From Squalus acanthias (Eukaryota), in contig CM059431.1 in the NCBI GenBank assembly GCA_030390025.1, positions 146,322,001-146,386,000 of the forward strand: 64,000 nt of DNA, written 5' to 3'. Positions within the stretch are counted from its first letter, which is position 1; each line of letters begins with the position of its first letter. Positions 518 to 61,995 of the stretch are shown here, piece by piece. A program made the translations under genes and the position numbers. A model generated the notes under the pieces. The model searched no databases. It was not told where the DNA came from and was given only the letters and a program-made list of their open reading frames with translations.

Positions 518-3460
518 AATCCTCTCAGCATCCTATGATGCATCCCATCCGCCCCGGTGATTTATTTACTTTAAGTACAGCCAACCTTTCTCATTCCTAT
601 TTTTAATGAAATTTTATCCTACCAAGTCTCTCTACTACCACCTCCTTCAGTATGTTCATGGCAGCATCCTGTTCCTTGGTGAAGACAGATGCTACGTACT
701 CACCTAGTACCTCAGCTATACCCTCTGACTCCATTCGTGGATCTCCTTTTTGGTTCATAATCGGCCCACTCCTCCCCTTTCTACCCTTTTACTATGTATA
801 TTCCTATAGATGACTTTTGGATTACCTTTTATGTTGGCTGTCAGTCTATTCTCATATTCACTCTTTGCCCCTTTTTTTTCTTTTCACTTCTCCTCTTACC
901 TTTTATATATAGCCTGATTAACAGACGTTTATGCAACCTGAAATCTGTCATACGCTCTCTTTCTGCTTCATCATATTCTCTATATTTCTCGCCATCAAGG
1001 GAGCTCTGATTTTAGTTGCCCTACCTTTCTCCCTCTTGGGAATGTACATCGAATGTACCCGAACTATTTCCTCTTTAAAGGCAGCCCATTGTTCCACTAC
1101 AGTTTTGCCTGCCAATCTTTGATCCTAGTTTTCCCGGCCAGATCCGTTCTCAATCCACTGAAAATGGCCTTCCCCAATAAAACATTTTTACTCTAGATTG
1201 CCCCCTGTATATTTCCATAGCTAATCTAAACCTTCTGATATTATGGTCACTCTTCCCTAAATGTTCTCATACTGACACATGCTCCACTTGACCTACCTCA
1301 TTCCCCAGAACCAGATCCAGCAATGCCTCCACCCTCGTCGGGCCGGAAACATACTGATGAAGAAAGTTCTCCTGAACACACTTCAGAAATCCTTCCCTTC
1401 TCTTCCCTTAACACTATAACACTCCCAGTTTATATAAGGATATTTGAAGTCGCCCATTATTACTCCTCTATAGTCCTTGCACCTCTCTGTAATTTCTCTG
1501 CTAATTCTTTCCTCCATATCGTCGCAATATTTGGTGGTCTATGGAATACACCCAGTAGCGTAATGGCACCTCTATTATTTCTTAACTTTAGCCATATAGA
1601 TTCTGTCATTTACCCCTCCAAGACATCCTCCCTCTCCAGCGCTGTAACATTCTCCTTAAACAATAATGCTACACCACCTCCTATCTTTCCTTCCCTATCT
1701 TTCCAGACACATTATAACCAGGAATATTTAATAACCAATCCTGCCCTTTTTTGAGCCAGGCCTCAGTTACCGACACAACATCTTATTCCCGTGTGGTTAT
1801 TCGTGCCTGCAGCTCATTTACCTTGTTTAATACGCTTGGTGCGCTCACATACATACATTATAAACCCATCTTTGACCATTCTGTATTCTCTCTTTGTTGT
1901 ACCCACCTTATACCTTACTATTTCTTACTTTAGTGCTCTCTGCCTCTCCCAATCCTTTGAGCACTTTATTTCACCTTTCTAACGTTACTTACTGGTGTCC
2001 ATCCATTTGCTAAATTAGTTTAAACCCTCCCCAACAGCATTAGCAAACCTACCCGCGAGTATATTGGCTCCGGTACAGTTGAGGTGCAACCCGTCCGGTC
2101 TGTACAGCTCCCACCTCACCCAGAACCGGTCCCAATGCCTCAGGAATCCGAAACCCTTCCCTTCTCACCATCTGTTCAGCCACGCATTCTTCTGCTCAGT
2201 CCTTCTATTTCTATACTCACTCACGTGTGGCACCGGGAGTACTACCTTTGATGTCCTGAGAGGTTACTAACTTTGAGGTCCTGCTTTTTAAACTCTTTCC
2301 TAGCTCCCTAAAATCTGCCGGCACGGCCTCATCTCCCTTTCTACTTATGTCGTTGGTACCCATATGGACCACGATCTCTGGCTGTTGAACCTCCTCGCTG
2401 AGAATGTTCTGCAGCCGCTCAGTGACATCCTTAACCCTGGCACCAGGGAGGCAACGTGCCATCCTGGAGTCACGTCTGTGGCCGCAGAAACACCTGTCTG
2501 CTCCCCTAACTATCGAATCCCCTATCACTCCCTCTCGTCTTCCTTCCCCCTGTACATCTGAGCCACCCGTGGTGATGCGGACATGGCTCTGGCTGTACTC
2601 CCCATAGGAATCATCGCCCTCACCAGTACTCGGAACAGAATAGTGGCTGGAGAGCGTGATACATTCAGGGGAGTGCTGCACTACCTGCCTTGTCCTCCTT
2701 TTCTGTCTGGTGGTCACCCATTCCCTCTCTGCCTGCACACTCATTAGCTGCGGGGTGACCACCTCCTGAAACATGCTATCCAGGTAGCTCTCAGCCTCAC
2801 GGACGCACCGCAGTGCCGCCAGCTGCTGCTCAAGCTCCGAAACCCAGGGCTCGATCTGCTCCAGCTGACGACACCTCCTGCACACGTGGTTGTCCAGAAC
2901 ACGGGAAGCATCCTGGTGTTCCCACATGGCACAGGATGAGCACTCTTTGTGACTGAGCTGCACTGCCATGCCTCTATTTAATAGACTATTAACTAGCTTT
3001 ACAGAAACTTAAGACTAAGATGTATCTAATTCAAATTATTAATATAACATAGGATTAACAGTTACTAATTTAATATAGTATTAACAGTTAATAATTTAAG
3101 AAAGTATTAACAGTAACACATCTCAAAGTTTCTGTTTTATCTCTAACCAGCTTTTTAAACCCGGCCCCTAGAGGAGCAAGAAAAATATTTTTTTAAACTA
3201 CGTGACCTTTACCAACCAATCAGTTGCCAGGTGTCCTGTGACGTCCTTGTGGTTTTTCTCTCTCTGTCCTGTTCTCTGCGCTCGGTGTCCACCCAGTACC
3301 GCTCTCGCTGCAGCTGCCGCCGGTGTGTCTGGATCGCTCTCTCTCTCCCCACTCTTTAACTCCTCGGTCTCCGCGCTCAGTCTTCACCCAGGGCCGCTCT
3401 CGCTGCTGATGCTACCGGTGAGTCCAGCCCACTTGAGACAGAGGCCAATATTACAATAGC
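518..3460 (-). mobile_element. 5' half of a CR1 LINE (5'UTR, ORF1, decayed ORF2 endonuclease region)
   Basis: ORF1 at 2217-2969 is followed on the minus strand by stop-ridden endonuclease/linker sequence homologous to the CR1 copies at 44790-47235 and 55870-57960. Confidence 0.8.
2217..2969 (-). pseudogene. CR1 ORF1p (Cys-rich zinc finger, coiled coil, SGNH-esterase-like domain), C-terminally disrupted
   Basis: CSSC...CRRC, LEQQLAAL heptads, and the esterase blocks VIGDSIVRG, CLPGARVKDV and VVHMGTND. Confidence 0.8.
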
Positions 3461-34499: not shown

Positions 34500-34663
34500 A
34501 TCTCCTGGTAAATGATGGAGTGATTGAGGAAGCTGCACAGCTGGATGTAAACAGGGATTGTAGACTGAGAAATAACAGCAGGTGAACAGCACAGGATTGT
34601 GAGAGCACCAATCAGAGAAATCTTCCGATTCAAAGAGCTTCCAGAGATCGACTGGGGAGAAAG
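34500..34663 (+). other. Candidate 5'UTR exon
   Basis: Pyrimidine-rich tract plus AG at 34498-34499; donor AAG|GTAACA at 34664; contains only a 3-codon uORF (ATG ATG GAG TGA) and no long ORF. Confidence 0.4.
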
Positions 34664-39590: not shown

Positions 39591-39772
39591 CTGATGAACA
39601 ATCAGCGGAAATATTTTACAGGATGTTAGAATTTACAAATCGATGGCCTCCTCTCTCGATTTCATGTCAGCGGTGCAATGGAATTATTTTGAATCCACAT
39701 GTTTCTGTTCTGTTCTAATATACCCTGCTATAACCTGAAATTATTTTTTTTGCAGGTAACAAGTTGCCTGAG

Positions 39773-39938
39773 ATGGGACACTCATCAAGTAAACGAAGCG
39801 TAGCTAGAAAACAACGCCAGATTCAAGGCCCTGCTCCTGGGGCAGGTGATCAGGCCCCAGGAAACGGTACAAATGAAGCGACTCCTTCCCCCGGAGGTTT
39901 ATTAAATATGAATACGACAAGCTTTGACCAAAAAACAG
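39773..39938 (+). CDS. NLR-like gene, predicted first coding exon (exon 39756-39938): MGHSSSKRSVARKQRQIQGPAPGAGDQAPGNGTNEATPSPGGLLNMNTTSFDQKT
   Basis: Acceptor tttttttttgcag at 39755, Kozak GAGATGG, 55 open codons, donor CAG|GTTAGT in phase 1 matching the next exon. Confidence 0.65.
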
Positions 39939-40059
39939 GTTAGTAGAATGAAACTCACTTCAAGTAAACCATCCCTGAACATTTGAACCACTAGAACAAA
40001 ACTCTGTCCATTCACTTACTGACCTGCAAAAAAATATATAATATAGTTATAAATATGAT

Positions 40060-40260
40060 CCCTCAAGTTCCGCCCAATTTTCGGACACTGAATTCGAGGT
40101 TTTGCAGGAGGAGGTCTCCAGGTATACGGACTTCTGCTATCCATCACGTGGCAGGAAGATATCCAGGCAAGCAGTGAGTGGGGAGAGGTAGCAGAAATAT
40201 AGCCCCATAACAGCTGCATTGCAGGAGGAAGTTCAACCACCTCACACGGAAACCAAGATA
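40060..40260 (+). mobile_element. Decayed Harbinger-type Myb/SANT DNA-binding gene fragment
   Basis: AQFSDTEFEVLQEEVSRYTDFCYPSRGRKISRQ, then after frameshifts GEVAE and CRRKFNHL; similar to the fragment at 61995-62136. Confidence 0.6.
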
Positions 40261-40514
40261 AGCCAACTAACATATTTACATAATTACTCTCACGATAGCC
40301 TTGCATTACCTGTTGACCCGGCACTCTCAACCCTTCCCTCCACAATTACCAGAATTCTCCTCGATTCACTGCAAATTCCTATCTGTGTATTCGGCAAACC
40401 AGTAGCAGCAGCAACATCTTCTGCACACGGATAATACATTTTAATAGTTTCTGCTAAATAACATAATAACACAGCAGGTTGTATAGAAACATATACTTCA
40501 TCAGGTTTCCCGTT

Positions 40515-40890
40515 TCCATGGCTTAATAAAACATTTTTAACATTGATAACGCCTGTTTCAATCCCTTTTATAATAGAGAATATTGTGCATTTGTTCAGTC
40601 CTCCCAGCACTGGGGGCGCTGCAGTGAACATTCACACATGTCTGCCTGCCATTCTCGCCAGTTTCAACAAACGCAGTGAGAAAACATTCCAGTTCATCTG
40701 CCTAATCATGAGCGAAACCATGGAGATTCGCCAGTAAAGAATTACAAGTCTTATTTATAATGCACACTTTCTGTAAGCGTAAAACTTATTGCTGCCCTCG
40801 TCCCTTGTCACATTCACTTCCTATTATACGTCAAACTTCACAATGCAGACATTAAATTTGAAGTGTAACCTCTCACACCCCGTTACTGGG
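40515..40890 (+). repeat. Diverged duplicated segment, paralogous to 3890-4262
   Basis: See 3890-4262. Confidence 0.8.
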
Positions 40891-40899
40891 ATCTCGTTC

Positions 40900-42870
40900 A
40901 AGGGCTGGGTCAATGGGATTTCGGTGTTGGGCTGTGTCATTTGGGTGTCGGTGTGGGGCTGGATCAGTGGGGTGTCGGTGTAAGGCCGAGTCAGTGGTGT
41001 GTCGGTCAAGAGCTGGGTCAGTGGGGTGTCGGCGTGGGGCTGGGACAGTGGGGTGTGGGTGTGGGGCTGGGTCAGTGGGTTGTCGGTCAAGGGCTGGGTC
41101 AGTTGGGTGTCGGTGAGGGGCTGGGTCAGTGGGGTGTCGGTGTAGGGCAGGATCAGTGGGGTGTAGGTGTAGGGGTGGGTCAGTGGGGTGTCGGTGTAGG
41201 AGTGGGTCAGTGGGGTGTCGGTGTAGGGCTGGATCAGTGGGGTTTCGGTGTAGGGCTGGGCCAGTAGGGTGTCAGTGCAGGGCTGGGCCAGTATTGTGCC
41301 GGTGTAGGGCTGGGCCAGTAGGGTGTCAGTGTAGAGCTGGGTCAGTAGAGTGCCGGTGTAGGGCTGGGCCAGTAGGGTGCCGGTGTAGGGCTGGGCCAGT
41401 AGGGTGTCAGTGTCGAGCTGGGTCAATAGGGTGTCGGTGTAGGGCTGGGTCAGCAGGATGTCAGTGTAATTTTGCGTCATTAGGGTGTTGGTGTGGGGCT
41501 GTGTCAGTGGGCTGTCGGTGTGGGGCTGGGTCAGTAGGGTGTCTGTGTGGGGCTGGATCAGTAGGGTGTCAGTGTAGGGCTGGATCAGTCATGTGTCGGT
41601 GTAGGGCTGGATCAGTGGCGTGTCGATGTAGGGCTGGGTCAGTAGAGTGTCTGTGTAGGGCTGGTTCAGTAGTGTGTCACTGTATGGCTGGATCAGTGGT
41701 GTGTCTGTGTAGGGCTGGTTCAGTGGGGTGTCGGGGTAGGGCTGTGTCAGTGGGGTGTCGGTGTAGGGCTGGGTCAGTAGGGTGTCGATGTGGGCCTGGG
41801 TCAGTGGGGTGTGGGTGTAGGGCTGGGTCAGTGGGGTGTCGGTGTGGGGCTGGGTCAGTGGGGTGTTGTTGTGGGGCTGGGTCAGTGGGGTGCGGGTGTG
41901 GGTCTGGGTCAGTGGGGTGTCAGTGTAGCGCTGGGTCAGTGGGGTGTCGGTGTAGGGCTGGATCAATGGGGTGTCGATGTACGGCTGGGTCAGTAGGGTT
42001 TCGGTGTAGCGCTGGATCAGTAGGCTGTTGTTGTCGGGCTGGGTCCGTGTGGTGTATTTGTAGGACTGGGTCCGTGTGGTGTTGGTGTAGGGCTGGGTCA
42101 GTAGTGTGTCGGTGTAGGGCTGGGTCAGTAGTGTGTCGGTGTACGGCTGAATCAGTATGGTGTTATAGGGCTGGGTCAGTAGAGAGTCTGTGTAGGGCTG
42201 GTTCAGTAGTGTGTCGCTGTATGGCTGGATCAGTGGTGTGTCTGTGTAGGGCTGGTTCAGTGGGGTGTCGGTGTAGGGCTGTGTCAGTGGGGTGTCGGTG
42301 TAGGGCTGGGTCAGTAGTTTGTCGGTGTAGGGCTGGGTCAGCAGTGTGTCGGTGTAGGGCTGGATCAGTATGGTGTTATAGGGCGGGGTCAGTAGAGAGT
42401 CAGTGTAGCGCTGGATCAGTGTGGTGTAGCTGTAGGGTTTCGTCCGTGTGGTGTTGGTGTAGGGCTGGGTCAGTAGTGTGTCGGTGTAGGGCTGGATAGT
42501 GGCGTGTCGATGTAGGGCTGGGTCAGTATGGTGTTGGTATAGGGCTGGGTCAGTAGGGTGTCAGTGTAGCGCTGGATCACTGGGGTGTTAGTGTAGGTCT
42601 GCGACAGTAAGGTGTTGGTATAGGGCTGGGTCAGTAGGTTGTAAGTGTAGCGCTGGGTCAGTGGGGTGTTGGTGTAGGGCTGGGTCCGCGTGGTTTTGGT
42701 ATAGGGCTGAGTCAGTAGGCTGTCGGTGTTGGGCTGGGTCAGTGTGGTGTGGAGCTGGGTCAGTGGGCTGTCGGTGTGGGGCTGGGTCAGTAGGCTGTCG
42801 TTGTAGGGCTGGGTCAGTGGGGTGTGGGTGTAGGGCTGGGTCAGTAGGGTGTTGTTGCAGGGCTGGGGTG
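40900..42870. repeat. 27-bp G-rich minisatellite (gggctgggtcagtggggtgtcggtgta)n
   Basis: 9-codon periodicity in the spurious ORFs (CRCRAGSVG, TQPYTDTPL); followed by a CR1/SINE-type tail (aatggcctctttctgtgctgtacattctatgtaa). Confidence 0.95.
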
Positions 42871-43289
42871 GGAGGAGGCTTTGACCAGTTGAGTAAAATG
42901 GCCTCTTTCTGTGCTGTACATTCTATGTAATTATATTTAAAGTGGGAAGCGAAAAAATCAAATTTTCTGAAGCAGTTTTCTAAAACGGAACTTTGGAAGC
43001 TTTGTTCTTATTTTGAAGCCTGCAACAAGCAAACTCCTCCAGTGGAACTGGGAGATTCCAGTCACCCAGCTAGAGGATGTAGAATGTTTTAAATTGAAAT
43101 GAATTTAACCGTTTCTAAAATATTAAACTGCAAATGGGAATTGTGTATTTCAGAGGAGAGAGTTTGATTAAAGAGACTCGCACAGTTTGACACGTGGGTG
43201 AAGAGTTAGACATATTTATTTCCATCTCCCCGTCTCCGCTCAGTGTCATGTCGCCTCCTGAATCTCTGCCGATCTTTCTCATAACTCCA

Positions 43290-44517
43290 GTTTTGAATCT
43301 CTCAAATCGGGTTTCCGCTCCTGCCACAGCACTAAATTGGCAATAATCAAAGTCAGAACTAAAACATTCTATGACTAATACTCCTGATTCTTCCCGACCT
43401 CTGCAGTCTTTGACACTTTATTGCACAACATCCTCCAACGCCTCTCCTCCGTTGTCCAGCTCAGTGGGACTGCCCTCGCTTGGTTCCACTTTTACCCATC
43501 CAGTCGTAGCCAGAGAATCTCCATCAATGGCTTCTCTTCCTGCTCCCGGACTGTAGTCCCCCATAGATCGCCCCTCGCCCCCTCCTATTTCTGTTCTACA
43601 TGGAGACATTATACGAAGACAAGGGATCAGCTATCACATGCACGCTGACAACACTCTGCTCTACATCTCCACCACCTCTCTCCACCCATCCACAGCTTTT
43701 GCTTTCTCACGCTGCTTGTCCGACATCCAGTCTGAGATGAAATACATATTTCTCAAATTAAATATTTTGAAGACCGAAGACATAGACTTCAGCCCTCGCC
43801 ACGAATTCTGTTCCCTCGGCAATGATTCCATCCCCGTCCTAGCCAGTGTTTCGGATTGAATCAGACTGTTTACAACCTCAGCATTCGATTTAACCCCAAG
43901 CTGAGCTTCCGACCCGATATTCTCTGAATCACAAAGACCGCCTAAATGCAACTCTGTAGTATTATCCATCTTCGCCCCTGCATCAGCCCAGCTGCTGCTG
44001 AAATCCTCATCCATGCTTTTATCACCCGGTGACATGGATTTTTCCAGTGCTCTCTGAGTCACTTTACTCCTTTCACTCTTCGCATGAAAATCGCTGCTCC
44101 GATCACCCCGTCCTTGTGAACCTACATTGGCTCCCGGTCCCTCGACACATCCAAAGGAAAAGTCCCAATGGGCTCATTGCTCGCTCTCTCTGTAACCTCC
44201 TCCAGACCTACAATCCCCAAACTCGCTGTTCCTGCGACTCTGGCCTCTTGTGGCATTTCGCCCTCTCCTCCCTCCATCTATGGAGGCTGTGCCTTCGGCT
44301 GTCCCGGCTCAATGCTCATCAATTCCCACATAAACCTCTCCAGCTCCCTCCTCCTTTAAGACACTCCAAAAATCTCTTCTTTGACGAATCTTTGACCAGG
44401 CTTCCTTCTACCCGCTTTATTCAGCGTCCACCTTTAGTCTGATTCAGCTCCTGTGAGGCGCCTTGCGATGTTTTTAGATGTTAAAAGCGCTGTAGAAATG
44501 TAAGATGTTGTTGTTGT
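43290..44517 (+). mobile_element. Decayed L2-clade LINE 3' part
   Basis: SGTALAWF...RSQRISING, HADNTLLY (decayed YADD), LHWLPV; tail ...aaaagcgctgtagaaatgtaagatgttgttgttg. Confidence 0.8.
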
Positions 44518-44789
44518 GAGTTTATTGTACTCGTGTCAGCGTGAGTGACACAGCAGGTAACTGAATCTTAAAAGGTTCAAACTTGGTTACAACTTAATTC
44601 TGGAGAATAACTTCAACTATATTTTGGATAATTGACTGATCCTAAACTGGATCTCGTTTACATTTCCCCAGTGGGGAAAGGAAAGGACGCTGCCTGATAG
44701 TTTGACTGGACACACGTGCTTGGAAACACTCACAGCGAGACACGTGGACAAGTGGGGAATATTCACTGTAAAACAGTAGTCAAATCTAC

Positions 44790-47235
44790 GAATTATAGTA
44801 GTGATAATGGTGGACTTAATTATCCTAATATAGACTGGGATAGAAATAGTGAAAAGGGCAGAGAGGGGGAAGAATGTCTTAAGTGTGTTCTGGAGAACTT
44901 TCTTGATTAGTACTTTTCCGGCCCAACGAGGAAGGAGGCATTGCTGGATCTGGTTTTGGGGAATGAGGTGGTCAAGTGGAGCAAGTGTCAGTAGGGGAAC
45001 ATTTAGCGATCAGTGATCACAGTATCATAAGGTTTAGATTAGCTAGAGAAAAGGAAAGGGAGCAGTCTAGGGTAAAAATTGGAACTGGCCCGGCTAAATT
45101 GGAATCAAATATTGGCAGACAAAATTAAGTAGTAATCGAACAATGGGCTGCTTTTAAAGAGGAGATGGTTCGGGTAAAGTCAAGATACATTCCCACGAGG
45201 GGGAAAGGTAGGGCAACCAAAATCAGAGCTCCCTGGATGACGAAAGAGACAGTGTAAGATGAAGCAGAAAAAGGATGTCAGGTTGAACCAGGCTGAATAT
45301 AGAAAGTTCAGAGGGGAAGCGAAAAAGGAAATAAGAGGGGCAAAGAGAGAGTATGAAAATAGATTGGCAGGTAACATAAAAGGAAATCCAAAAGTCTTCG
45401 ATAGACATATAAATAATAAATGGGTAGTAAGAGGAGGGGTGGGGCCGATTAGGGACCAAAATGGATTCCTACGGATGGAGACAGAGGGAATGGCTGAGTT
45501 ACTGAATGAGTACTTTAATTGTGTCTTTACCAAGGAAGAACATGCTGCCAAAGTCATAGTAAAAGAGTAGGCCATTGAGATACTGGAAGGGAAAAAATTA
45601 GATAAGGAAAGGTACTAGAAAGGCTGGCTGTAATTAAACTAGATAATTCACCAGGACCGGTTGGGATGCATATTAGGCTGCTGTGGGAGCTGAGGTTGTA
45701 AATTGCGGATGAATATAATTTTCCATATCTTCCAATCCTCCTTGGATACGGGGCTGGTGCCAGAGGACTGGAGAATTACAAATGTTAAACCCTTGATCAA
45801 AAAAGGGGGTGAGGATAAACCCAGCAACGACAGGCCAGTCAGTTTAACCTCGGTAGTTGGGAAGCTTTTAGAAACGAAAATCCGGGACAAAATTACCAGT
45901 CACTTGGACAAGTAAGCATTAATTAAGGAAAGCCAGCACGAATTTGTTAAGGGGAAATCGTGTTTAATAACTTGATTGCGTTTTTTGATGAGGCAACAGA
46001 GAGGGTTGATGAGGACAATGCGGTTGATGTGGTGTACATGGACTTCCAAAAGGCGTTTGATAAAGTATCACATAATAGGTTTGGCAGCAAAGTTGAAGCC
46101 CCTGGAATAAAAGGGACCGTGGCAGCATGAATACGAAATTGGCTAAGTGACAGGACACAGGGAGTAGTGGTGAACGGTTGTTTTTCGGACTGGAGGAATG
46201 TTCACAGTGTTGTTCCCCAGGGGTTGGTAATAGGACCACTACTTTTCTTGATGTATATTAATGACTTAGACTTAGGTGTACAGGGCACAGTTTCAAAATT
46301 TGCAGATAACACAAAACGTGTAAGTACAGTGAACAGTGAGGAGGAGATTGATAGATTTCAAGAGGACACAGACAGGCTGAGGGAATGAGTGGACACTTGG
46401 CAAATGAAATTTATTGCAGAAAAGTGCGAAATGCTATATTTTGATTGGAAGAACGAGGAGAGGTAATATAAACTAAAGGGTACAATTCTAAAGGGTGTGC
46501 ATGAACAGAGAGACCTGGGGTATACGTGAACACATTTTTGAATGTGGAAGGGCAAGTTGAGAAAGTGGTTAAAAAACCATACCGATCCCGGGCTTCATAA
46601 ATACAAGTGTAGAGTTCGAAAGCAAGGAAGTTATGATGAACCTGTATACAAAAACTGGTTCGGCCTCAACTGGAGTATTGAGTCGAATTCTGGGCACCAC
46701 ACTTTTAGAAGGATGTGAAGGACTTAGCGAAGGTGCAGAGAAGATTTATGAGAATGGTTCCAGGGATGAGGAACTTCAGCTACATGGATAGACTGGAGAA
46801 GCTGGGGTTGTTCGCCTTAGAGCAGAGAAGGTTGAGAGGAGATCTGACTGATGTGTTCAAAATCGTGAGGGGTCTCGACAGCGTAGATAGAGAGAAACTG
46901 TTCCCATTGGCAGAAGGGTCGAGAACCAGAGGACACAGATTTACGATGATTGGCAGAAGAATCAAACGCGACATGAGGAAAAACTGTTTTACGCAGCGAG
47001 TGGTTGTGATCTGGAATGAACTTCCTGAAAGGGTGGTGGAGGCTGATTCAATCGTGACTTTCAAAAGGGAATTGGATAAGTAACCGATGGAAAAAAAATG
47101 CATGGCTACGGGAAAAGGGGGGATGTGTGGGACTAGCTGAAGTGCTCGTATTCGAGAGCCGGCACGGGCTCGACGGCTCGAATGGGCTCCTTATGTGCTG
47201 TAAACATTCTGTGATTATTTCTTTCTATGATTCTA
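44790..47235 (+). mobile_element. 5'-truncated, decayed CR1 LINE
   Basis: NYPNIDW (EN), RPVSLTSVVGKLLE, DFQKAFDKV, VPQGLVIGPLLFLMYIND, KFADNTK, QRVVVIWNELP; ttctatgattcta tail. Confidence 0.92.
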
Positions 47236-47868
47236 CATTGCGCGGGCTCATTAGTCAGGTGCTGACACCATGAGAGATATGGTCAATATATTCATATAGA
47301 AGCACTAACCAGGACACATCTCCATTAACACACGGACAATGTCACTGCCCATAGAGACCAGAGGGATCATACCCAGCTATGTATTGTGTGTGGATAAATA
47401 TCACATTTATAAAATACAAGAATTTAATATCAAAACTCAACAAATCAAAATATTAAAAACCACACTGTGTAAAACCGAGTGAAGGATCATTTGATCCATC
47501 AATGATCTCCCCGCTCGTTATTTCCCTGCAGAATATTCACTACCTCAGGAATAAGGCTGGTTTTGGCCTGCACTGTGAGTAAATCTCACCAATGGCCGCT
47601 CCCATTGCGGAGTCTCGGCCGACGGGAGCCCGTCTGGAACTCGGTTGTGGAGATCAGCGGGACTCACTGGATTTCACTGGGCAGCTGTCTGTGATACACC
47701 AAATGTGGAGAGTTGATCGTAACACTCGGGAAATGCTCGATCCCAGAGCTAACAGCTGTTGTACTGATGGGGGAGGAGGGACTTGATATCATGTTTAACA
47801 AGGCAACGTTCTCCTTCTCATTTTAATGTTTCCGTCTAACCCTCCTATTAATATTATATTTATTACAG

Positions 47869-47961
47869 AGCATCAGAATCTGGGAACGCCTGCCAACAGC
47901 ATAGCTGAAGGTCCAAACAGGGGAGAAGATCCAACATCTTCAAGAATGAGAATAGACACTG
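47869..47961 (+). CDS. NLR-like gene exon: (E)HQNLGTPANSIAEGPNRGEDPTSSRMRIDT
   Basis: Acceptor tttattacAG, donor ACTG|GTTGGT, phase 1 to 1, in frame with both neighbours. Confidence 0.75.
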
Positions 47962-48057
47962 GTTGGTTCACAATATTCTTTAAATATAATGTCTGTCCTG
48001 ACAAATGGTCCAGATCTCGTGCAAGAACCTGAGCTCACAGAGGAAGAGGATACTTAT

Positions 48058-48362
48058 TATAAGAAATAGGAATACGCCATTGGATCCTTCGAGCCTGCTC
48101 TTTAATTAGTATCCAATAATCTATCGATCTTTGTCTTGAATATACTCAACGACTGAGCATTCACAGCCTCTGTGGTAGAGAATTCCAAAGATTCACAACC
48201 CTTTGAGTGAAGATATTTTCCTCGCTTTATTCCTAAATGTCTGACCCCATTATTCGGAGACTCTGACCCCCAGTACTAGACTCGCCAGGCAGAGGAAACA
48301 TCCTCCCAGCAGTTACCCTGTCAAGCCCCTTAAGAATTTTATGTTTCGATCAAATCACCTCA
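48058..48362 (-). mobile_element. CR1 3' fragment
   Basis: Homologous to 5532-5900 and 62140-62520 (gaattccaaagattcacaaccctttgagtgaaga). Confidence 0.8.
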
Positions 48363-48769
48363 TGGAACTGGGCAGGGGCTGTGTACAAAACAGGAAGTGA
48401 GTGACCATCTAGAGGGGCACTGCAGTCACAGGTGGAGGGAGCCCTCGAGTACTGGAACTGTCCAATAGATGCCTGGTATTGGGGACTATACGGTGGATAG
48501 AGACAGTGACTCAGAGGATGGTCTTCCTAAGCAACAGTGTGAAACCAGGGAGCAGGAGGCCACCCCGAGAGTTGCGGGGTAGGAGGTTGAGAGCAGTTTA
48601 CCTAAAGGAATAGGAGAACGATAAAAGTGTCTGATTCGACAGTTTGGGGAATAGACAGCTTCTGGTACCAGAGAGAAGAAAATGTTAGAACGGGTGTGAC
48701 CTATTCTGGAAAAGCAAGGAGAGCAGAAAATACTTCCGCTCAAAACCAATAACACAACTAGAAATACAT

Positions 48770-49460
48770 TTTAAAAAATCATTTTCAAGTTGCGAGTGTC
48801 ACTGACAAGCTCAGCATTTATTCCCCATTCCTGGTTGCCCTTGTATAGGTGGTGATAGGCTCCCTTCTTGAATCGCTGCAGTCCACATGATGAAGGTGCT
48901 CCTTCAGTGCTTTTAGGTAGGGAGTTCAAATGTTGAGATCCAGCGACAATGAGGAAGCAGTGATGTCCACTGTCCAAGTTAGGATATTGTGTCATTTTAA
49001 GGTGTACTTGGTATTCCGTTGCACCTGCTTCCCTCGTCCTTCCAGTGGTAAATCTCGAGGGACTGGGTGGCGCTCTCAACGATGGCTTGGCGAGTTACTT
49101 GAGTGCATCCTGTAGACAGCACTCTGTAGCCACGGTACGCCAGTGGTGGAGGGTGTGAATATTTAACCCAATGGATGGGGTGCTGATCAAGCAGAATGCT
49201 TTGTGCTGAATTGTGTCGAGCTTCATGAGTGTTGTTGCAATTGCACTCGTCAGACTAATGGAGAATATTCCATCAGTTCCTGACGTGCATAGTAGGCGGG
49301 GGAATTAACTTGGGGATGAGGAGGTGAGCCATTCGCCACAGATACTCAGCCTCTGGCCTGCTCCAGTAGATACGCTTTTTATGTGGCTGATCCAGTGCAA
49401 TTATTGGATGATGTGGGGGACTTGGCGATTGTAATGTTATTGAATCTCATGGGAATGTGG
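48770..49460 (-). mobile_element. LINE 3' fragment, same family as 14-517
   Basis: Homologous DNA; HCFLIVAGSQHLNSLP...GLQRFKK. Confidence 0.8.
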
Positions 49461-49479
49461 TTGAGGAGATGGAGATGAC

Positions 49480-52400
49480 AAGGGAAAGGTAGCATAGTAG
49501 TTGTGTTACTGGATGAGTCATCTGCAGCTGGGGAATTTAAATTCAGCAAATTAAATAAATCTGGAATTAGAAGTTACGATCAGTAATGGTGACCATGAAA
49601 CTACCGGATTGTTGTAAATACCCATCTGGTTGACTAATGACCTTTAGCGAAGGAACTCTGCCGTCCATACCTACTCTGGCCTATACGTGACTCTAACTGC
49701 CCTCTGAAATGCCCTAACAATCCACTCGATTGTATCAAACCGCTACAGAAAACAGCAAAAGGAAGAATAAAACAGGACGGACCACCCAGCATCGACCTCC
49801 GCACCGGCATTGTACAGGAAAAAGGCTCACCGATCCTAGTCGAACCTGGAAATTCCGCCTCATTAACATCTGGGGAAGTGTGTCAACATTTGGAGAGCTG
49901 TCCCACAGAATAGGCAAGCAACAGCCTGACATTGTCATACTCACAGAATCATACCTTTCAGCCAATGTCCCATAATCCACCATCATCACCAGATGAGGCA
50001 GCATAATGATATGCAGTCAGGAGGGTGTGGTCTGGGGAGAATTGAACATTGACTCCAGACCCCACGAAGCCTCATGGCACAGGTCAAGCATGGGCAAGGA
50101 AACCTCCAGCCGATTACCACTTACCGTCCTCCCTCAGCTGATGAATCAGTGCTTCTCCATGTTGAACACCACTTGGAAGAAGCACTGAGATTATCAAGGG
50201 CACAGAATGTACTCTGGGTGGGGTCTTCAATGTCCATCACCAAGAGTGGCTCGGTAGCTCCACTGCTGGCCGTGTCCTGAAGGACTTAGCGGCCAGGCTG
50301 GGACTGCAGCAGGTGCTGAGAGAACCAACACGAGGGAAAAACCTACTGGACTTCGGCCTCACCAATCTACCTGTCGCAGATGCATCTGTCCATGACATTT
50401 TTGGGAGCAGTGACTACTGCACAGTCATTGTGGAGACGAAGTCCCATCTTCACACTGAGGACACCCTCCATCGTGTTGTGTTCAACTACCAACGTGCTAA
50501 ATGGGATAGATTGAGAACGGATCTAGCAGCTCAGAACTGGGTATCCATGAGGCTCTGTGGGCCATCAGCAGCAGCAGCAGAATCACGACAATCTGTAACC
50601 TCATGGCCCGGCGTATCCCTCACTTTGCCATTACCATCAAGCCAGGGGACCAAAACTGGTTGAATGAAGAGTGCAGAAGAGCATGCCAGGAGTAGTAGCA
50701 TGAGTACCAAAAAATGAGGTGCCAACCTGGGGAAGCTGCAAAACAGGACTACATGCATGCTAAACAGCAGAAGCAGCATGCTGCAGACATAACTAATCGA
50801 TTCAACAACAGACGGATCAGAATAAAACTCTGCAATCCTGCCACATCCGTCGTGAATGGTGGTGGACAATTCAACAACTATCGCGAGGAGGAGGCTCCAT
50901 GAAAATCCCCATCCTCAATGATCGAGGAGCCCAGCACGGAAGTGCAAAAGAGAAGGCTGAAGTGTTCGCAACCATCTGCATCCAAATTGCCGAGTTGATG
51001 ATCCATCTCGGCCTCCTACTGAGGTCGGCACCATCACAGAAGCCAGTCTTCAGCCAATTTGATTCACTCCACGTGATATCAAGAAACGGCTGAGTGCACT
51101 GGATACAGCAAAGGCTATGGACCCTGACAACATCCCGGCTGTCGTGCTGAAGACGTGTGCTCCAGAACTAGCTGCATCTCTAGCCAAGCTGTTCCAGTAC
51201 AGCTACAACATTAACATCTATCCGAGAATGTGGAAAACTACCCAGGTATGTCCTGTCCACAAAAAGCAGGACAAATCCAATTCTGCCAATTACCATCCCA
51301 TCAGTCTACTCGCAATCATCAGCAAAGTGATGGATGATGTCGTCGACAGTGCTATCAAGCAGCACTTACTCACCAATAACCTGCTATCAGATGCCCAGTT
51401 TGGGTTCCGCCAAGACCACTCGGCTCCAGACGTCATTACAACCTTGGTCCAAATACGGACAAAGGAGCTGAATCCTAGAGGTGAGGTGAGAGTGACCGCC
51501 CTTGATATCAAGGAATCATATGACCGAGTGTGGTATCAAGGAGACATAGGGCCAAAAATTCATCCCGGTGCGCGAGAGTACGCACTGCGTACTCTCGCGT
51601 ATTCCCTCTGCAATTGCCGGTTTTCTGCATGCCCTGCGCATGCGCTGAAAACCGGCAATTGCTCTTTTGAAAAGGGGGCGGTTCCTCGGTGCATCGCGTG
51701 CGCGCTACAGGCTGCGCGCACGCTGTGCACTTCATGCTTTGGACGCGCAGGTAAGTACTGAAGATTTTAGAAATGGAAAAAGGAGGAGTAAGACCCACTT
51801 TTAACAAGGTAAGTAGTGAATTAAGTATTTTTTTGAATTTTTTTAACAGGTATATCTTTTTTAGAGACTTTAAAGACAGGTAAGTTTATTTTTATAACTT
51901 TTTAAAAGATTTTAAATTTTTTCAAAAATTTAATTTTTTATTTAAAATGGTTAATTTATTTAACTATACTTATTTTATTAATGTGATGGTTTTTTTTAAA
52001 TTTAATTGAGGTTTAGCTGTTATTTTGGGGGGGTGTAAGATTCATAGATTTCACAGCACGTCTGTGAAACTTATGAATGGAAGATGGTGTGCTGCCATTG
52101 GCTCTAACTGAGTCACGTGATCCCACAGCTCGCACGAATTCACTACGCCGGTGGGATACGCAAGCACTGCCCGGCTGATGTCTGGAACATCAAGTTCGTG
52201 CGAGCTGGATCTGAAAAAGCACAAGCGGAGTGAGAGATCGCGGGGAAGGCTTACCCCCGCGGGAACAGAGCGAGATCAATTTCTGGGCTATTGTAAAATT
52301 GAAGTGAATGGGAATCAAGGAGAAAAGGCTCCACTGGCAGGAGTCATACCTAGCACAAAGGAAGATGGTTGTGGTTTTTGGAGGCCAATCGTCACAGCCC

Positions 52401-53395
52401 CTGGAAATCGCTGCAGGAGTTCCTCAGGGCAGTGCCCTAGGCCCAAACATCTACAACTGCTTCATTTAATGACCTTCCCTCCATCATAAGGTCAAAGATG
52501 GGGGTGTTCGCTGATGATTGCACAGTGTTCAGTTCAATTCGCAAATACTCAGATAATGAAGCAGCCCATATCCGCATGCAACAAGATCTTGACAACATTC
52601 AGGCTTGAGTTGATATGTGGCAGGTAATAATCGGGCCACAGAAGTGCCAGTCAATGACTATCTCCAACAAGCGAGATTCTAACTACCGCCTTTGACATTT
52701 AACGGCATTACCATCGCTGAATCCCTCACCAGCAACATCCTGGGGGTCACCATTGACTGGAAACTTAACTGGACCAGCTACATAAACACTGTGGCTACAA
52801 GAGAAGGTCAGAGGCTGGAATTTCTGTGGCGTTTGTCTCACCTCCTGACTACCCAAAGATTTCCCAGCATCTACAAGGCACAAGTAAGAAGTGTGATGGA
52901 ATACACTCCACTTGCCTGGATGAGTGCAGTTCCAACAACACTCAAGAAGCTCGACCTCATCCAAACAAAGCAGCCCGCTTCATTGGCACACCATCCACCA
53001 CCTTAAACATTCACTCCCTCCACCATCGGCGCACCCCATATGCAGTGTGTACCACCTACAAGATGCACGGCAGCAAATCGCCAGTGCTTCTTCGGCAGCA
53101 CCTCCCAAACCCGCGACCTCTAACACCTGGAAGGATAACGGCAGCCGCTGCATAGGAACACTGTCACCTACTTCCCCCAATCAAACACCATCCTGACTTG
53201 AAAGCATATCGCCATTCCTTCATCGTCGCAGGGTCAAAATCATGGAAATCCGTCAGTAACAGCACTGTGAGAGTACATTCACCACAAGGACTGCAGCGGT
53301 TCAAGAAGGTGGCTCACCAACTACACATTAAGGTCAATTAGGGATGGGTAATAAATGCTGGCCTTGTCAGCGACGCCCACATCCCAGGAATTATA
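49480..53395 (+). mobile_element. Near full-length decayed single-ORF LINE (APE endonuclease + RT), interrupted by a MITE
   Basis: QQPDIVILTESYL, YRPPSAD, PTRGKNLLD, NYHPISLL, QFGFRQDHS, ALDIK.SYDRVW, FADD, YKAQVRSVMEY; tail agggatgggtaataaatgctggcc. Confidence 0.88.
51549..52289. mobile_element. Non-autonomous TIR element (MITE, probably PIF/Harbinger type) nested in the LINE RT
   Basis: Interrupts the LINE frame right after DRVWYQG; imperfect TIRs GGGCCAAAAATTCATCCCG / CGAGATCAATTTCTGGGCT; 3-bp flanks ATA/ATT; GC-rich ends with an AT-rich core. Confidence 0.75.
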
Positions 53396-53559
53396 AAAAT
53401 GTACAGTGCCTGACACTTGTGTGGTTCGAATATTATTTGCCAGTTATCAGCCCAAACCTCGATGTTATCCAGGTTTTGCTGCAGGACATGGACTGTTTTC
53501 ATTATCCATGCGCAGCTCCACCTCTGACCTTATGATGGAGCGAAGGTGAATCAGCTGGA

Positions 53560-55020
53560 GATAGATGCGGCTAGTACGCTGCCCTGGTTTGAGGAATATA
53601 TTTAGGTAATTGAAAGTCAGACAATAGATTGAAAAACAAGGCATCAAGTTGGTGATCTCTGGATTTTTTTGCACTGGTCTGCTTAAGGAGGCAGGTCAAT
53701 GTGTGACTTCAGTGCTAGAGCAGCAGGGTAGGGTTCACCTTGTTGGGACATTAGAGTGTGTTCGGGGAAAAGGGAAGGGACAGCCACGATCTGAACAGAC
53801 CATTAATAATGACTTTCAGTAAAGGTGGATGCAGCAGGCGGACGAGAATCAGTTGATATGACCGGTGTTTGGGGAAATCCGGATCTGAGAATAGGGAGTG
53901 TAATTAATACAACTTTTTTGGAGCAGGATCAGCAGATTTATGAAATAGTGTAAAGAAATACCAGGAAAAAAGGAGGGAGATTTTGAAGTAATGAGCGATA
54001 AAGTCATTTTATATATTTTTTCAAAAGCGAAACAAACGAGGATGAGCATTAAAAAGAACATCGACTGAATGTCAAGTGTGTGAATGTAAACATCGTTCCA
54101 AACACATATGAAAGTTAAAAGCAAGATGATGGGGTCCAGTGTATATGCAATGTTTGTACAGTACTAGGAGAGAAATGCTTCCGGTTAGAACATTTTCAGC
54201 AGAGAACGAACATTGCTGTGGGTGGCTGTATTAATAGCTGGTTTGTATCTGTCCCAAAATCAGACCAGAGCACTCAATACTGCAGGAAATCATGAGGAAT
54301 GTAGAACATGTAGTGGCAAGGTGAAAAGGGAGATAGGGCGGGGGTGGATAAAATGGTATATGGGACAACGCCTGCGGATAATATAAAAATCAGCGTTTAT
54401 TCGAAGTGAAATAATTATTCAAGGCTGCAGGACTCGGGATGAATGGGGAATCTAATGGTGGAGGATGAAGTTTTGAGGAGATACCATATATTTCCTTTAG
54501 TTTCTAAACATGATTTTGGTAGTGCGAATGTAGGTGTAATAGAGGAGGATGTGGGACCATAGTTAGAGATAACTGTAGAGAAGGATTTGGATTTGAGAAA
54601 AATAGCCAATGTGGATAAGTCACTGATCCCAGAGAAAATGCACTACAGGATGTTAAAGGAAGTCACAGAGGAGATAGAAGAGAGGCTGCACTATTGTTCA
54701 ATCCTCTTTAGATATAGACATTTGATCGCTGAGGGAGCCCAAGTAACGTCTGTTCAACAAATGGAGGAGAGAGGAAAAATCGGGTAACTAGAACAGTTAG
54801 TCTATGGCAGTCGAGAGCAGAATCCTCGAATTTGTAATTGAAGGCTGAATTAGTGAGCGTTGAGATACAGGGGATGATCAGGGGAGGCTGGAACCTATTA
54901 GCTGTAGACAAGTCGTGTTTGAGAAATTTAAAACTTGTTTTTAAAGAATTGACTATGTAGATCGACGGGATGTAGCAAATGCGTTGTATGTGATTTTTCA
55001 CAAGGTGTTTGATGTAGCCG
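53560..55020 (+). mobile_element. Highly decayed CR1 remnant
   Basis: Scattered homology to CR1 ORF1 end and ORF2 (e.g. gatttttcacaaggtgtttgat, resembling DFxKAFD). Confidence 0.55.
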
Positions 55021-55096
55021 TCTGGTATAAGAGGAAATGTTGCAGCTTGGAATTAAAGTGGATAATGTGTTTAGTTTTCTCCATTTGTGTTCACAG

Positions 55097-55263
55097 ATCC
55101 GAACTCTATAATCACTGAGTTCTTGACAGAGTGCAACGATTTCCATCTGTTCCAGTTGACGAAATTCTACCGGGACAGACTGGAACAGGCGGTTGAAGGA
55201 GGGGTGGATGGAGTCAGCTTGTCGTTAACATACGAGAGGCATTTCAGTGGACAAGAACATCGG
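55097..55263 (+). CDS. NLR-like gene exon, death-fold/CARD-like part 1: (D)PNSIITEFLTECNDFHLFQLTKFYRDRLEQAVEGGVDGVSLSLTYERHFSGQEHR
   Basis: Acceptor tgtgttcacAG, donor CGG|GTAAGT, phase 1 to 0; resembles (from recall) the N-terminus of shark NACHT-LRR 'NLRP3-like' proteins. Confidence 0.85.
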
Positions 55264-55869
55264 GTAAGTGGGAGGGACACAGAATGAGTTTGGATTATTA
55301 AACATCACAGAACTGACAGGATATCAGATCTTAGAATCATAGGATGTTACAGAAGAGAAACAGGCCAAATAGGAAAGAAAGGATTTTAACTGTTAATGGT
55401 GTAAATCTGAAACAACAACATCAATGTGAAGATACCCAGCAGATCCATCAGTGTCTGTACAAAGACAGGACCGGGTACCGGGTCCGATATAACCCTTCCT
55501 GGGCTGAGGTCAAAGGGAACCAATAATTTTAGTAGCACTGGAAAACAGAGGCGGGAAACAACTGACGGGATTTGGAAGGAAGTTCATGAGTTGACTGACC
55601 TACAAACTACTTAAAGTAAATCGAGGAACTGAGAGATGATAAAAAAATCATCTGCGTGGCAAAGGAAATATATTTTTTTAGAAAATGCTCAACCAGTGAA
55701 CCAGTATTGGACCCAAACAGCGCAAACGATCCAAAAAAAACCTGTGGGGAGTGTTGGTTCAACCGAATAGAATGATCCAAATTACATTTATTCAGATACC
55801 AGAGCAAAATCAACTTGTTGGTTATATGAAGATCCTCAGGATCTTCAAGCAAATTATACAGCTATAATT

Positions 55870-57960
55870 AGTAGAATCACAGAAACTTAGAGCACAGAAG
55901 GAGGCCATTAGACGTGTCTTGTCTCTGCAGACTCTTTGAAATAACACTCCTGCTCAGTCCCGAATTCCAACTTTTTGTCCAAAGCCCTGTAAGTTCCTCA
56001 TTCTCAAGTTCCTGTCCAACAAACTTTAAAATTATTTGTGTAATCTGCTTCCACCATCTTTTCTGGTAGAGCGTTCATAATCCTGACAACTCTGAGTGAA
56101 AACAGTTCTCCTCATCCTCCCTCTAGATCTTTTTCAGTGATTTTATATCTATGACCTTTAGTTATTGACCCACTCGCCAGAGGGAATAGATCCTCATCTA
56201 TCTAATCTATCAAAACCTCTCATCATCTTTAAAACCCCTATTAAGTCACCGTCTTTGTTCCAATGAGAACGTTCCTAACTTTTCCAACCTAGTAGTAGGA
56301 TACCTTGGAGTCTGAATACTAACCAATCCAGACAAGTTCTCAGCACGGGATACCAAAGAATTAATGAAAGTGCCCCAATTTATACACCTAGATCAGGGGT
56401 GTCAAATAGACAGTTACAACCCGTCCATGTAACTGAAGTCCCTCATCCCTGGTGCTGGGTTGTAATTTATTAACATATGTCTTTCCAAGTGACAATTTTG
56501 TCCTGTACTATTGTCTAACAGTTGCCCCACCACCGACATTAGGCCGACTGGCCTGTAGTTGCTTTTCCTCTCCTCTTTTTTGAACAGCGGTGTAACATTG
56601 GCAACTCTCCAGTCCTCTAGCACCACTCACATGTCCAAGGAGGATTGGAAGATTGTGACTAGAACAACGACAATTTCCCCCCTTACTTCCCTCAGCAACT
56701 GAGGATGGATTTCATCCGGACAGGGTGGCTTTTATACTTTGAGTGCTGCCAATATTTTAAGTGCCTTCCCTTTACCTATTTGCATCGTGTCCAATTTCTC
56801 TATTATCTCTTCGTTTACTGTGAAATTGGCAGCACCCTCTTTCTTTGTGAACAACACATGCAAAGTATTAATTTATTTCCTCAGCCATGACCTTGGACTC
56901 CACAAAAAGATCTCCTTTTTGGTCGTTAATTGGCCCCACCCTTCGTTTGATTAACCTTTCACTATTTAAATATTTATAAATGACTATAATATTCCCCTTT
57001 ATGTTAACCGATGATATTTTCTCTTATAATCTCTTAGGCCCTCGTATTTCCGGTTTCAGTTCTCCTCTGCACTTTCTGTATTCAACTTGAGTCTCTCTAT
57101 TGTATTATGAATATGACATTTATTATAAGCCAACTTTCTCTGTTTAAGTTTAACCTCTATATCTTTAGTCATCCAGGGAGATCTAGCTTTGGATGCCCTT
57201 CCTCCCCCCTCATAGGAACGTGTCTGGTCTGTACCTGTGATATCTCCTCTTTGAAGGCCTCCAATTACTCATTTACGCTTTGATCTGCCAATCTTTGTTT
57301 CAAATTCCACTGATCCGTTTACAGCTCACTGAAGTAAGCCCTATTTCAGTTGAGCATATTCACCTTAGATTGTTCATTCTCCCTTTCCATTACTACTCGA
57401 AACCTAATGATATTTTGATCGCTGTTCCCCAAATGCTGTCCGACTGAAACGTGCTCCACTTTCCCCACTTCACTGGCCATAACTAGATCTAGCACTGCTT
57501 CCTTCCTTGTTGGGCTGGAAATATATTAATCAAGAATGTTCTCGTCTAAACATTTCAGGAATTCCATCCCTCCTTGGCAATTACTTGTGTTTTCCCCAGT
57601 CTACTGTCACCCTCCCCACCCCACTATTTTTCTTCCTCATGCCCCCTGAACTCATTGTATCCAGGAATGTTATGTTCTGGTTCCTCCCCTTGTTTGAGCC
57701 AGGTCTCCTTATTGCTATTATATAATAACCCATATGCCTACAGCTTAACAATATAATTAATCACGCCTCGTGCATTGATGCACATGCACTCTAGATACGC
57801 CTTAGTCTGTTTTGCATATCTCCCCTGTCTGATTCCTCCTCTCTCTGTGCTCTTCCATATTCTGTCGCTATTTGTCTCTCGGAATGCTCGATACACCTTG
57901 TTTCTCCTTTCTAATTCCTCATCCTCGTTCCCGTCCCCCTATCAAATTAGCTTAAACACT
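55870..57960 (-). mobile_element. Internally deleted, decayed CR1 LINE
   Basis: 3' tail near 55875; EDWRVANVTPLFKK...NYRPVGL; region homologous to 518-2020. Confidence 0.75.
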
Positions 57961-59031
57961 CCCATTCATGGGCAATAGTTGCACAGAGCATTGCTGAGGC
58001 CATTGCTGAGCAGGATTGAGTCCCCTAACATCAGAATGAACGAATAATGGGGGGTGGGGTCAGAGCAGGGCAAAACGGTCATACTAGGCCCGAGGTCCTT
58101 CCTTTACAAAACACAGTCACAGAGCTGAATTTTTCACCTTACAGGAAAAAAAGATATGAAGGGTACATGATCCGGGTCTTATGAATGCTTGAAACGGTAA
58201 AACAATCGAACTGTAGATAATACTGTGGACCATGGACCGTAAATACTAAACCAGTGACATGGAACAAGCCTCAGACGAGACCAATGGTCACCCCAATTTA
58301 CATTGAATTGAATGTGTAGTATCGAAAGCATTAATATGTCCAAAAAATCTCGCAAAAAATTGGTGTCAATTGAATAAAACTGTGGATTATCGAAATAAGT
58401 ATAGAGTGAAAAAATACCAGAGGGAACTCAATGTTGCTGCAGCAGGAGCAATAAGTAGAAATAATCCAACCACAGTTAATTACTGGAGATGTCAATGAGC
58501 AGATATTCAGGATTCCCCTTGACAGCATTTAATGGAATCAGACAGCTGTGTTCAGATTAATGTGAGGTGATTGAGGTGTGGAGATTAAATATCTGAAGTA
58601 CAGTCCCTGGAGTGGTGGGGTCTACATGTTCTTAACAGGAGCAGGACATCTAGGTAAAATGGTCTCACGTATTCCTATGGAAAAGGGATTTCTCCCACCG
58701 CTTCAGTAAATCCCTGCAAGAATCATTGAAATTTCATGAACCTCAGAGTATCTGCACTTCCTGAGAAGGAGTCAAATTCGTGTGTGTGAATATTTAGAAC
58801 CTGCTGCGCAATATTCCGCTGAACATCGTCATTCATCCATGTCAAACAGACTGGCGAAATTAGTGTCAAAAGATTAACCAATCGGTAACTAATATTCACT
58901 TCAATGAATTAATTGCCGTGGTCCTGTTGTTGAATGGAATTAAAAGTATCGAATTGAATAAACAGGGTGAGTATGGGGTGAAATTGATCTTTCACTCCGC
59001 TCATCAATATATTCATTATTATTCTTTACAG

Positions 59032-59203
59032 AAAGTCACTGAGCTCACGGAGCAGGGAAACCGGGCGGACAGTTCCAAACTTCTCCTAAATCTGGTGATG
59101 GAGAAAGGCTCCCGGGCCCGAAGGACGATGTGGAAATCCTTTGTGAATATGCGCCATGGGGTACCAAAGTTGGACAAAATACTGAAAGAAGTACAGGAAC
59201 ATG
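59032..59203 (+). CDS. NLR-like gene exon, death-fold/CARD-like part 2: KVTELTEQGNRADSSKLLLNLVMEKGSRARRTMWKSFVNMRHGVPKLDKILKEVQEH
   Basis: Acceptor attctttacAG, donor CATG|GTACGG, phase 0 to 1; the CARD-like 'LL.LV..KG..A' helix pattern is present. Confidence 0.85.
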
Positions 59204-59307
59204 GTACGGTAAAATCATACACGGAATTCAATTTCACATTTAAAATTACATACTTTACTAAAGTAGTTCACTGATTTGCTTTCATGAAAACTAATTTATT
59301 TAAACAG

Positions 59308-59373
59308 GTTTCTTTCGATTTAATGACATGAAAGCCACAGAATGTTTATCCGAAGTTCCCATTCAGCTGAAAG
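59308..59373 (+). CDS. NLR-like gene linker exon: (G)FFRFNDMKATECLSEVPIQLK
   Basis: Branch-like ctaat, acceptor tttaaacAG, donor AAAG|GTAGGT, phase 1 to 1, open frame. Confidence 0.75.
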
Positions 59374-61775: not shown

Positions 61776-61799
61776 ATCATCACTCCCATTCCCAATACA

Positions 61800-61995
61800 C
61801 CACTGAAAGGGTAGTGGAGGCAGAAACCCTCATTGCATTTAAGAAGTACTTGGATGTGCACTTGATGTGCCATGAACTGTAAGGCTACAGACCAAGAGCT
61901 GGAAAGTGGGATTAGGCTGGATAGCTCTTTATTGACTGGCACAGGCACGATGAGCAGAATGGCCTACTTCTGTGCCGTAAACTTCTATGATTCTC
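61800..61995 (+). mobile_element. CR1 3'-tail fragment
   Basis: gggtagtggaggcagaaaccctc...aatggcctacttctgtgccgtaaacttctatgattct. Confidence 0.7.

Follow-up and report, generated by a model that had tools for sequence, protein, structure and literature searches.

Can a shark NLR be held at a membrane by a lipid attached to its very N terminus? Accounts of vertebrate NLRs place these proteins in the cytosol, or have them reach membranes by means of internal basic patches and reversible S-acylation. The N-myristoylated NLRs found in our literature search came from plants only, with no vertebrate among them; subscription papers lay largely outside the search, and the absence is unproven. The question is raised by a 64,000-nucleotide stretch of the Squalus acanthias genome (assembly GCA_030390025.1, contig CM059431.1, positions 146,322,001 to 146,386,000), hereafter the window, whose forward strand contains five linked exons between its positions 39756 and 59373. 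On balance, we favor reading these exons as the front of a gene for a CARD-type sensor, likely a full NLR, whose product probably starts at ATG 39773; myristoylation of Gly2 is predicted, and the lipid and a basic patch would together tether the protein to a membrane.

Exon structure and family membership

A preliminary description of this locus had proposed five exons that splice into an open frame of 664 nt. We confirmed this structure: AG and GT border the exons at all ends, the frame runs without a stop from ATG 39773, and the exon ends have phases 1, 1, 0, 1 and 1 as proposed. The head, the linker of about 70 residues (residues 16–86) and the death-fold domain are present as described, and each of the five exons occurs as a single copy within the window (Table 1).

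Searching with exon 4 retrieved 361 of 376 candidates at E≤0.001, a degree of homology well above chance. All 120 of these hits that were listed come from sharks and rays and are mostly named NLRP3/12-like, with a Walker A motif in 100 of the 120. Together with the tblastn matches of both CARD exons, this result supports the proposed membership in a shark-expanded NLR family. In relatives, the NACHT-bearing region directly follows the counterpart of exon 5 (alignment consensus), and full-length relatives carry C-terminal LRRs (domain scan). NLRP3 is the closest solved structure to P0078 (E=1.5e-98), a relative whose head also has Gly2, and the CARD of the window groups with Pristiophorus proteins in the tree, a placement that suggests a squalomorph shark.

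The death-fold domain was compared with known structures through relative P0036 (75.6% identity over 156 residues), for which the predicted fold is a confident helical bundle. The top Foldseek hits of P0036 were CARDs (probability 1.0, TM up to 0.82 of the target, E not significant). VIA-align scored the NLRC4 CARD (Z=12.2, root-mean-square deviation 2.9, 89 aligned) higher than any death domain (best Z=7.9), and 31 of the top 32 rows were CARD-bearing entries; a Z below about 13 may arise with helical bundles in general. The Pfam CARD family (PF00619) scored above cut-off in three of the eight relatives scanned, all of them rays. A Pfam scan of the five single exons returned no families, and phmmer of the CARD-only protein P0010 against the PDB returned nothing relevant. 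With CARDs on top in both structural comparisons, the predicted fold supports the CARD identity given in the preliminary description and suggests that the N-terminal domain of these proteins is a CARD, not the PYD of their automatic name.

The start codon and upstream exons

The head exon is an internal exon: its acceptor at 39755 is good, and the reading frame is open through the 17 nt that precede the ATG. Met-Gly could therefore have been internal to a longer protein, and for this reason the start was tested. We compared contigs from four runs (X1–X4, two studies) over 39575–40895 only, so that the junctions among exons 2–5 rest on homology. The runs are transcript-like, their RNA nature being a guess that the run records neither confirm nor contradict, and all counts of contig loose ends refer to the loose ends listed. 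Summed contig depth reached hundreds to thousands over 39755–39934 (partly from piled-up internal repeats) and was tens or less in the intron; run X2 had zero cover in the first exon bin. Two X1 contigs matched the head exon with no differences (39757–39835 and 39806–39915), and loose ends behind 39938 resembled the start of exon 2 in all four runs. These junction-like contigs, mostly of paralogue or related-species origin, support the proposed junction from 39938 to 47869.

Before 39755, loose ends led to two upstream exons, both ending in a GT donor (3417 and 34663). For the distal exon, all 30 letters shown of an X4 loose end are identical to 3387–3416. This exon contains an in-frame TAA (3357–3359) and an out-of-frame ATG at 3409 in weak context (C at −3 and +4), opening an 18-codon upstream open reading frame that overlaps the main start. 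For the proximal exon, one X1 loose end is identical to 34638–34661 at 24 of 24 letters. Contigs cover this exon back to about 34621 only, and its 5′ end is provisional; ATG is absent from 34603–34663, the nearest in-frame stop is TGA at 34600–34602, and a CCAAT motif lies at 34608. A third upstream loose end (X1) had no match in the window when up to 3 mismatches were allowed, and ends in an in-frame TGA (manual reading of 30 letters). A longer N terminus, read through the open leader of 17 nt, was considered and is not supported; the upstream exons contribute no in-frame ATG.

The context of ATG 39773 is strong (G at −3 and +4, the Gly2 codon being GGA), and the family's usual start codon, in the exon-2-type leader, is ATA here (47901–47903). 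The RefSeq/UniRef models P0078, P0087, P0125 and P0190, whose starts are automatic, also begin at Met-Gly on this type of head exon. With upstream exons that lack an in-frame ATG, and with the junction-like contigs, the Met-Gly start of the preliminary description stands: the protein very probably begins at ATG 39773, so that Gly directly follows the initiator Met.

Table 1. Exons of the CARD-type sensor gene and its predicted promoter, in window coordinates
Feature	Position	Strand	Observations
Predicted distal promoter	3216..3245	+	CCAAT box at 3216 and CRE-like site at 3239 (motif scan); putative function
Distal non-coding upstream exon (5′ end approximate)	3307..3417	+	X4 loose end of 111 letters, before 39755
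Proximal upstream exon	34621..34663	+	Donor 34663/34664; similar loose ends in X1, X3 and X4
Head exon (exon 1)	39756..39938	+	Own acceptor at 39755; 17-nt leader, then ATG 39773
Linker exon (exon 2)	47869..47961	+	Homologous to the family's usual first coding exon; junction-like loose ends in four of four runs
CARD exon A (exon 3)	55097..55263	+	tblastn 70–82% to 8 of 8 shark proteins tried; fold of relative P0036
CARD exon B (exon 4)	59032..59203	+	361 homologues; fold of relative P0036
Post-CARD linker exon, phase 1 (exon 5)	59308..59373	+	86% to P0057 132–153

A predicted membrane anchor in the head

The head reads Gly2-His3-x-x-Ser6-Lys7, with no Cys among residues 2–20. Gly2, Ser6, Lys7 and a basic cluster within 15 residues are shared with the two-signal anchor of the Src type, whose second signal is a basic cluster or an acylatable Cys near Gly2; here, residues 2–20 include five basic residues. 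The head also combines the features of an N-myristoyltransferase (NMT) substrate, namely Ser, Thr or Cys at position 6, Lys7 and the absence of nearby acidic residues (0 in residues 2–20). MGxxxS/T, the usual consensus, is not required for myristoylation and does not guarantee it (PMC4736023, in part; here and below these words mark a source of which a portion was available). In NMT1, Lys7 forms a salt bridge to Asp471 (PMC7048800, in part). Substrates with Lys3 rely on Ser6-Lys7 (10.1101/2021.06.22.449375, in part), which fits the head of relative P0190 (MGKLLSK). The endogenous human FBXL17 peptide G-H-L-L-S-K is listed as myristoylated in one supplement row (PMC10696250, in part). In another study, 19 of 37 new predicted human substrates were labelled as fusions, a reminder that predictions fail often; three MG-starts sought in the available part of its supplement were not found (PMC4550359, in part). 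Gly2 with Ser, Thr or Cys at position 6 and Lys7 arose in 0.1% of 200,000 shuffles of residues 2–86, and the same pattern plus a patch of at least five basic and no acidic residues in 0.0005%, percentages that are a rough guide because the pattern was chosen post hoc.

In the mechanism that we propose, Met would be removed and NMT would then acylate Gly2, recognizing the head via Ser6 and Lys7. Myristate together with K7, R8, R12, K13 and R15 would bind acidic lipids and anchor the protein at the inner membrane face; in relatives, nearby cysteines may provide the second signal instead through S-acylation. The low-complexity linker of about 70 residues would serve as a flexible tether and so allow CARD, NACHT and LRR to oligomerize freely near the membrane, and the membrane-near oligomer may recruit a CARD adaptor or caspase. 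Within the family, the head would behave as a phase-1 module that is gained, lengthened or inactivated, so that paralogues with similar bodies could sit at different places in the cell.

The head exon contains one copy of a 66-nt (22-aa) unit (39818–39877) that is duplicated in paralogue contigs. Relatives carry from one to over twenty tandem copies of this unit of about 22 aa (over twenty in P0121), so that tether length varies about tenfold.

The head exon type across sharks

The head exon alone as query found none among 25 candidates. A five-row head profile recovered 14 of 8,000 scored candidates, and a further representative search gave three, one of them additional. The resulting 15 database representatives include one headless fragment and thus, with the window, provide 15 scorable heads, which were aligned gap-free from Met. 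Six of them, from five species, have Gly2: the window, Pristiophorus P0078 and Heterodontus P0087 (MGNPSSK), Scyliorhinus canicula P0125 (MGQFLCK) with P0123 of the same type but internal to its model, and Mustelus P0190. Lys7 is present in all six and position 6 is Ser or Cys; pairwise identity among these heads is 0.13–0.40 at positions 3–5 and 0–0.27 at positions 8–15. A second signal (net charge of +3 or more, or a Cys, in residues 2–20) occurs in five of the six Gly heads versus one of the seven non-Gly heads scored, which have net charges of −1 to +1 and one Cys in total. Basic and acidic residues number 5/0 in the window, 6/1 plus a Cys in P0190 and 4/1 plus a Cys in P0078; P0125 and P0123 have 3–4 Cys. 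In place of the window's basic patch, relatives have cysteines, another basic patch, or neither.

We placed the heads on a FastTree phylogeny of the window and 60 relatives hand-picked from 131 representatives (P0037 dropped), which is unrooted and in which the window fills 21% of the columns. Gly heads were found in both the squalomorph and the galeomorph branches and were dispersed among them (4 label changes, a number as low in 55 of 500 shuffles), and bodies clustered by species, not by head type. This distribution would fit an old optional head exon on homogenized bodies, a history for which a root and more taxa are needed. From these comparisons, the anchor is credible as an optional head; it is not a family trait. 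Tentatively, we raise a wider possibility of swappable address heads, in which an ancient myristoyl exon, its second signal being a basic patch or palmitoylation cysteines, was kept, inactivated by loss of Gly2, or replaced by other membrane-seeking leaders.

Several database models have unusual heads. P0123, P0126 and P0099 run upstream through the open leader, burying the head Met, and in P0123 the extension appears to hide a Gly-plus-cysteine head. P0190, P0191, P0129 and P0182 join the head directly to the NACHT region with no CARD, and could be anchored CARD-less sensors or model errors; P0190 and P0191 have a strong Gly-Lys-x-x-Ser-Lys head with a Cys and six basic residues. Heptranchias P0117 and P0111 share the NLR body and have other leaders, one Trp-containing and polybasic (MWRWRLRKRKKKKK) and one Trp/Arg-rich and possibly amphipathic, which may be alternative membrane or nuclear addresses. 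MGQG starts in rays (6 of the 120 listed hits) were rejected as evidence, as they lie in an exon-2-type leader, lack Lys7 and vary at position 2 (G, D, S, H, V).

Alternative explanations

A number of observations weigh against a membrane-anchored receptor. Gly2 is missing from nine of the 15 scorable heads. Seven of these, all from Heterodontus, have Glu2 and Asn7, and two from Scyliorhinus torazame have Ser2 and keep Ser6-Lys7; retention of Lys7 thus does not require an acceptor. P0078 and P0087 lack the basic insert, and the patch is lineage-specific. The six Gly heads, picked on Gly2, represent about four independent types. Of the two signals named in the preliminary description, the myristoylation motif has gained support, because Gly2 and Lys7 occur together in divergent relatives, but most heads lack Gly2; the five basic residues are present in this head, but the patch is not conserved. 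His3 fails the classical PROSITE-like pattern, yet it is present in the myristoylated FBXL17 peptide (one row). A G at +4 is favored by Kozak context alone. Met-Gly starts account for 12 of the 120 CARD-exon hits listed; they are not enriched family-wide and are no commoner than in human open reading frames (339 of 4,369; PMC4550359, in part). As for the gene model, both X1 contigs with no differences span no junction, and the junction contigs differ from exon 2 at 2–3 of 26–30 letters, pointing mostly to paralogues or related species. The CARD fold was computed on P0036, not on the window protein, and 20 of the 120 listed homologues are without a Walker A match. Finally, tblastn with eight shark relatives gave no NACHT match in the last 4.6 kb of the window (59374–64000).

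Among the alternatives, an ordinary cytosolic member survives best, though we consider it unlikely. Here the head would be a fast-evolving disordered leader, Gly2 would be inherited or Kozak-driven, and any myristoylation would be inconsequential. The nine heads without Gly2 sit on genes annotated as full NLRs, and 51 of the 120 listed hits are headless and begin with the usual acidic exon-2-type leader; the grouping of bodies by species rather than head type and the lineage-specific patch point the same way. This explanation is harder to reconcile with Lys7 in all six Gly heads despite turnover at neighboring positions, and with second signals that track Gly2; Kozak context leaves position 7 unexplained.

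A myristoylated CARD-only regulator or a decayed copy, lacking a working NACHT-LRR part and acting as a membrane-bound decoy or not at all, is improbable. The 4.6 kb without a NACHT match and the homologues without Walker A allow for a CARD-only or broken gene, and short NACHT-less models exist, for example P0034, P0036 and P0049. However, other introns measure 0.1–7.9 kb, hence an exon-free 4.6 kb is unremarkable, and Walker A is present in most of the listed relatives. The five exons are also all intact, and exon 5 ends at a phase-1 donor.

We give still less weight to mixed output, in which leaky scanning, the overlapping upstream frame or skipping of the head exon would yield mainly unanchored protein from Met46 or Met82, with the anchored form minor. 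The upstream ATG at 3409 overlaps the main start, the downstream Met codons (39908 and 47946) have A at −3, and several relatives are modelled with a start just before the CARD. Against this, the upstream ATG has C at both −3 and +4, positions at which the main ATG has G, and the covered part of the proximal upstream exon has no upstream ATG.

A protease tripwire loosely like NLRP1/CARD8 or RPS5, with a linker bait that a pathogen protease would cut at Gln-Gly-Pro (residues 18–20, presumably resembling a 3C-protease site) to free or destabilize the sensor, is highly improbable: Gln-Gly-Pro/Ser recurs in P0087, P0080 and P0130 and the copy number of the linker unit varies greatly, but most relatives and repeats have Gln-His-Pro, Gln-Ala-Pro or Gln-Thr-Pro at this position, Gly2 is absent from two of the three relatives that have the site, and a FIIND domain is unlisted for the full-length relatives scanned.

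Repeats around the gene

The intron that separates the distal upstream exon from the remainder of the gene holds a 25.6-kb array of a 40-bp unit (8206–33839, 639 copies), with 4435–5509 noted alongside it. Near-identical open reading frames 1,801 bp apart (11380/13181 and 11901/13702) suggest a higher-order repeat, and a LINE-like (long interspersed nuclear element) fragment occurs twice, at about 24238 and 28404. The region 33850–34226 is relatively CpG-rich (observed/expected 0.82), with a strong donor at 34226 and an in-frame stop just upstream, and is a candidate further non-coding exon. From the end of the proximal upstream exon, a 61-bp minisatellite (34644–35290) repeats a donor-like site at 34724, 34785, 34968, 35027 and 35271; contigs use the first donor. 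Further minisatellites lie on either side of the head exon (38898–39534 and 40901–42867; 29- and 27-bp units) and downstream of exon 5 (60328–60642; 21-bp unit), and the long open frames within them are repeat artefacts.

Relation to known systems

An expanded NLRP-related family has been described in the whale shark (Tan et al. 2021, PMC8455134, in part), with no occurrence of 'myristoyl' in the available part of that paper. Compared with 60 shark members, the CARD exons of the window show 79–85% identity to the best 25, and the database proteins named 'NACHT, LRR and PYD domains-containing protein 3/12-like' probably correspond to the clade of the whale-shark paper. What sets the window gene apart from these elasmobranch NLRs is its additional head exon and the loss of the family's usual start.

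The plant group II (CC-G10) CNLs SUMM2 and RPS5 also begin with MGxxxS/T, in many cases close to a Cys; myristoylation of SUMM2 is established, and its G2A mutant no longer causes cell death (PMC13043302, in part). They differ in having coiled-coil and NB-ARC domains, not CARD and NACHT, and in that the motif occurs in 65% of their group versus a minority here. The plant and shark heads would be of independent origin. Mammalian NLRP3 also binds membranes through a polybasic region plus lipid (PMC12224916, in part), but it has a PYD and relies on reversible S-acylation at internal Cys130 beside an internal basic region, not on an N-terminal myristate. FBXL17 shares G-H-x-x-S-K; like Src, it is an unrelated protein that has the predicted targeting logic alone in common with the window protein. 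Zebrafish NLR-B30.2 proteins are likewise an expanded NLR family, with N-terminal peptide modules that have been shuffled and repeated (10.1101/022061, in part), but they stem from a separate expansion with PYD-like folds and B30.2, and 'myristoyl' has no occurrence in the available part of that source.

For the family, the predicted fold corrects the automatic annotation, pointing to a CARD and not a PYD in these shark proteins. If the anchor is real, sharks would have arrived independently at a plant-like solution, a lipid attached co-translationally to a CARD-NLR, and the natural Gly2, Glu2 and Ser2 variants of one exon would already provide anchored and free sensors to compare. If the heads are indeed swappable, they would distribute a single expanded family of sensors among various membranes and the cytosol, and jawed vertebrates would have N-myristoylated NLRs convergent with plant RPS5 and SUMM2.

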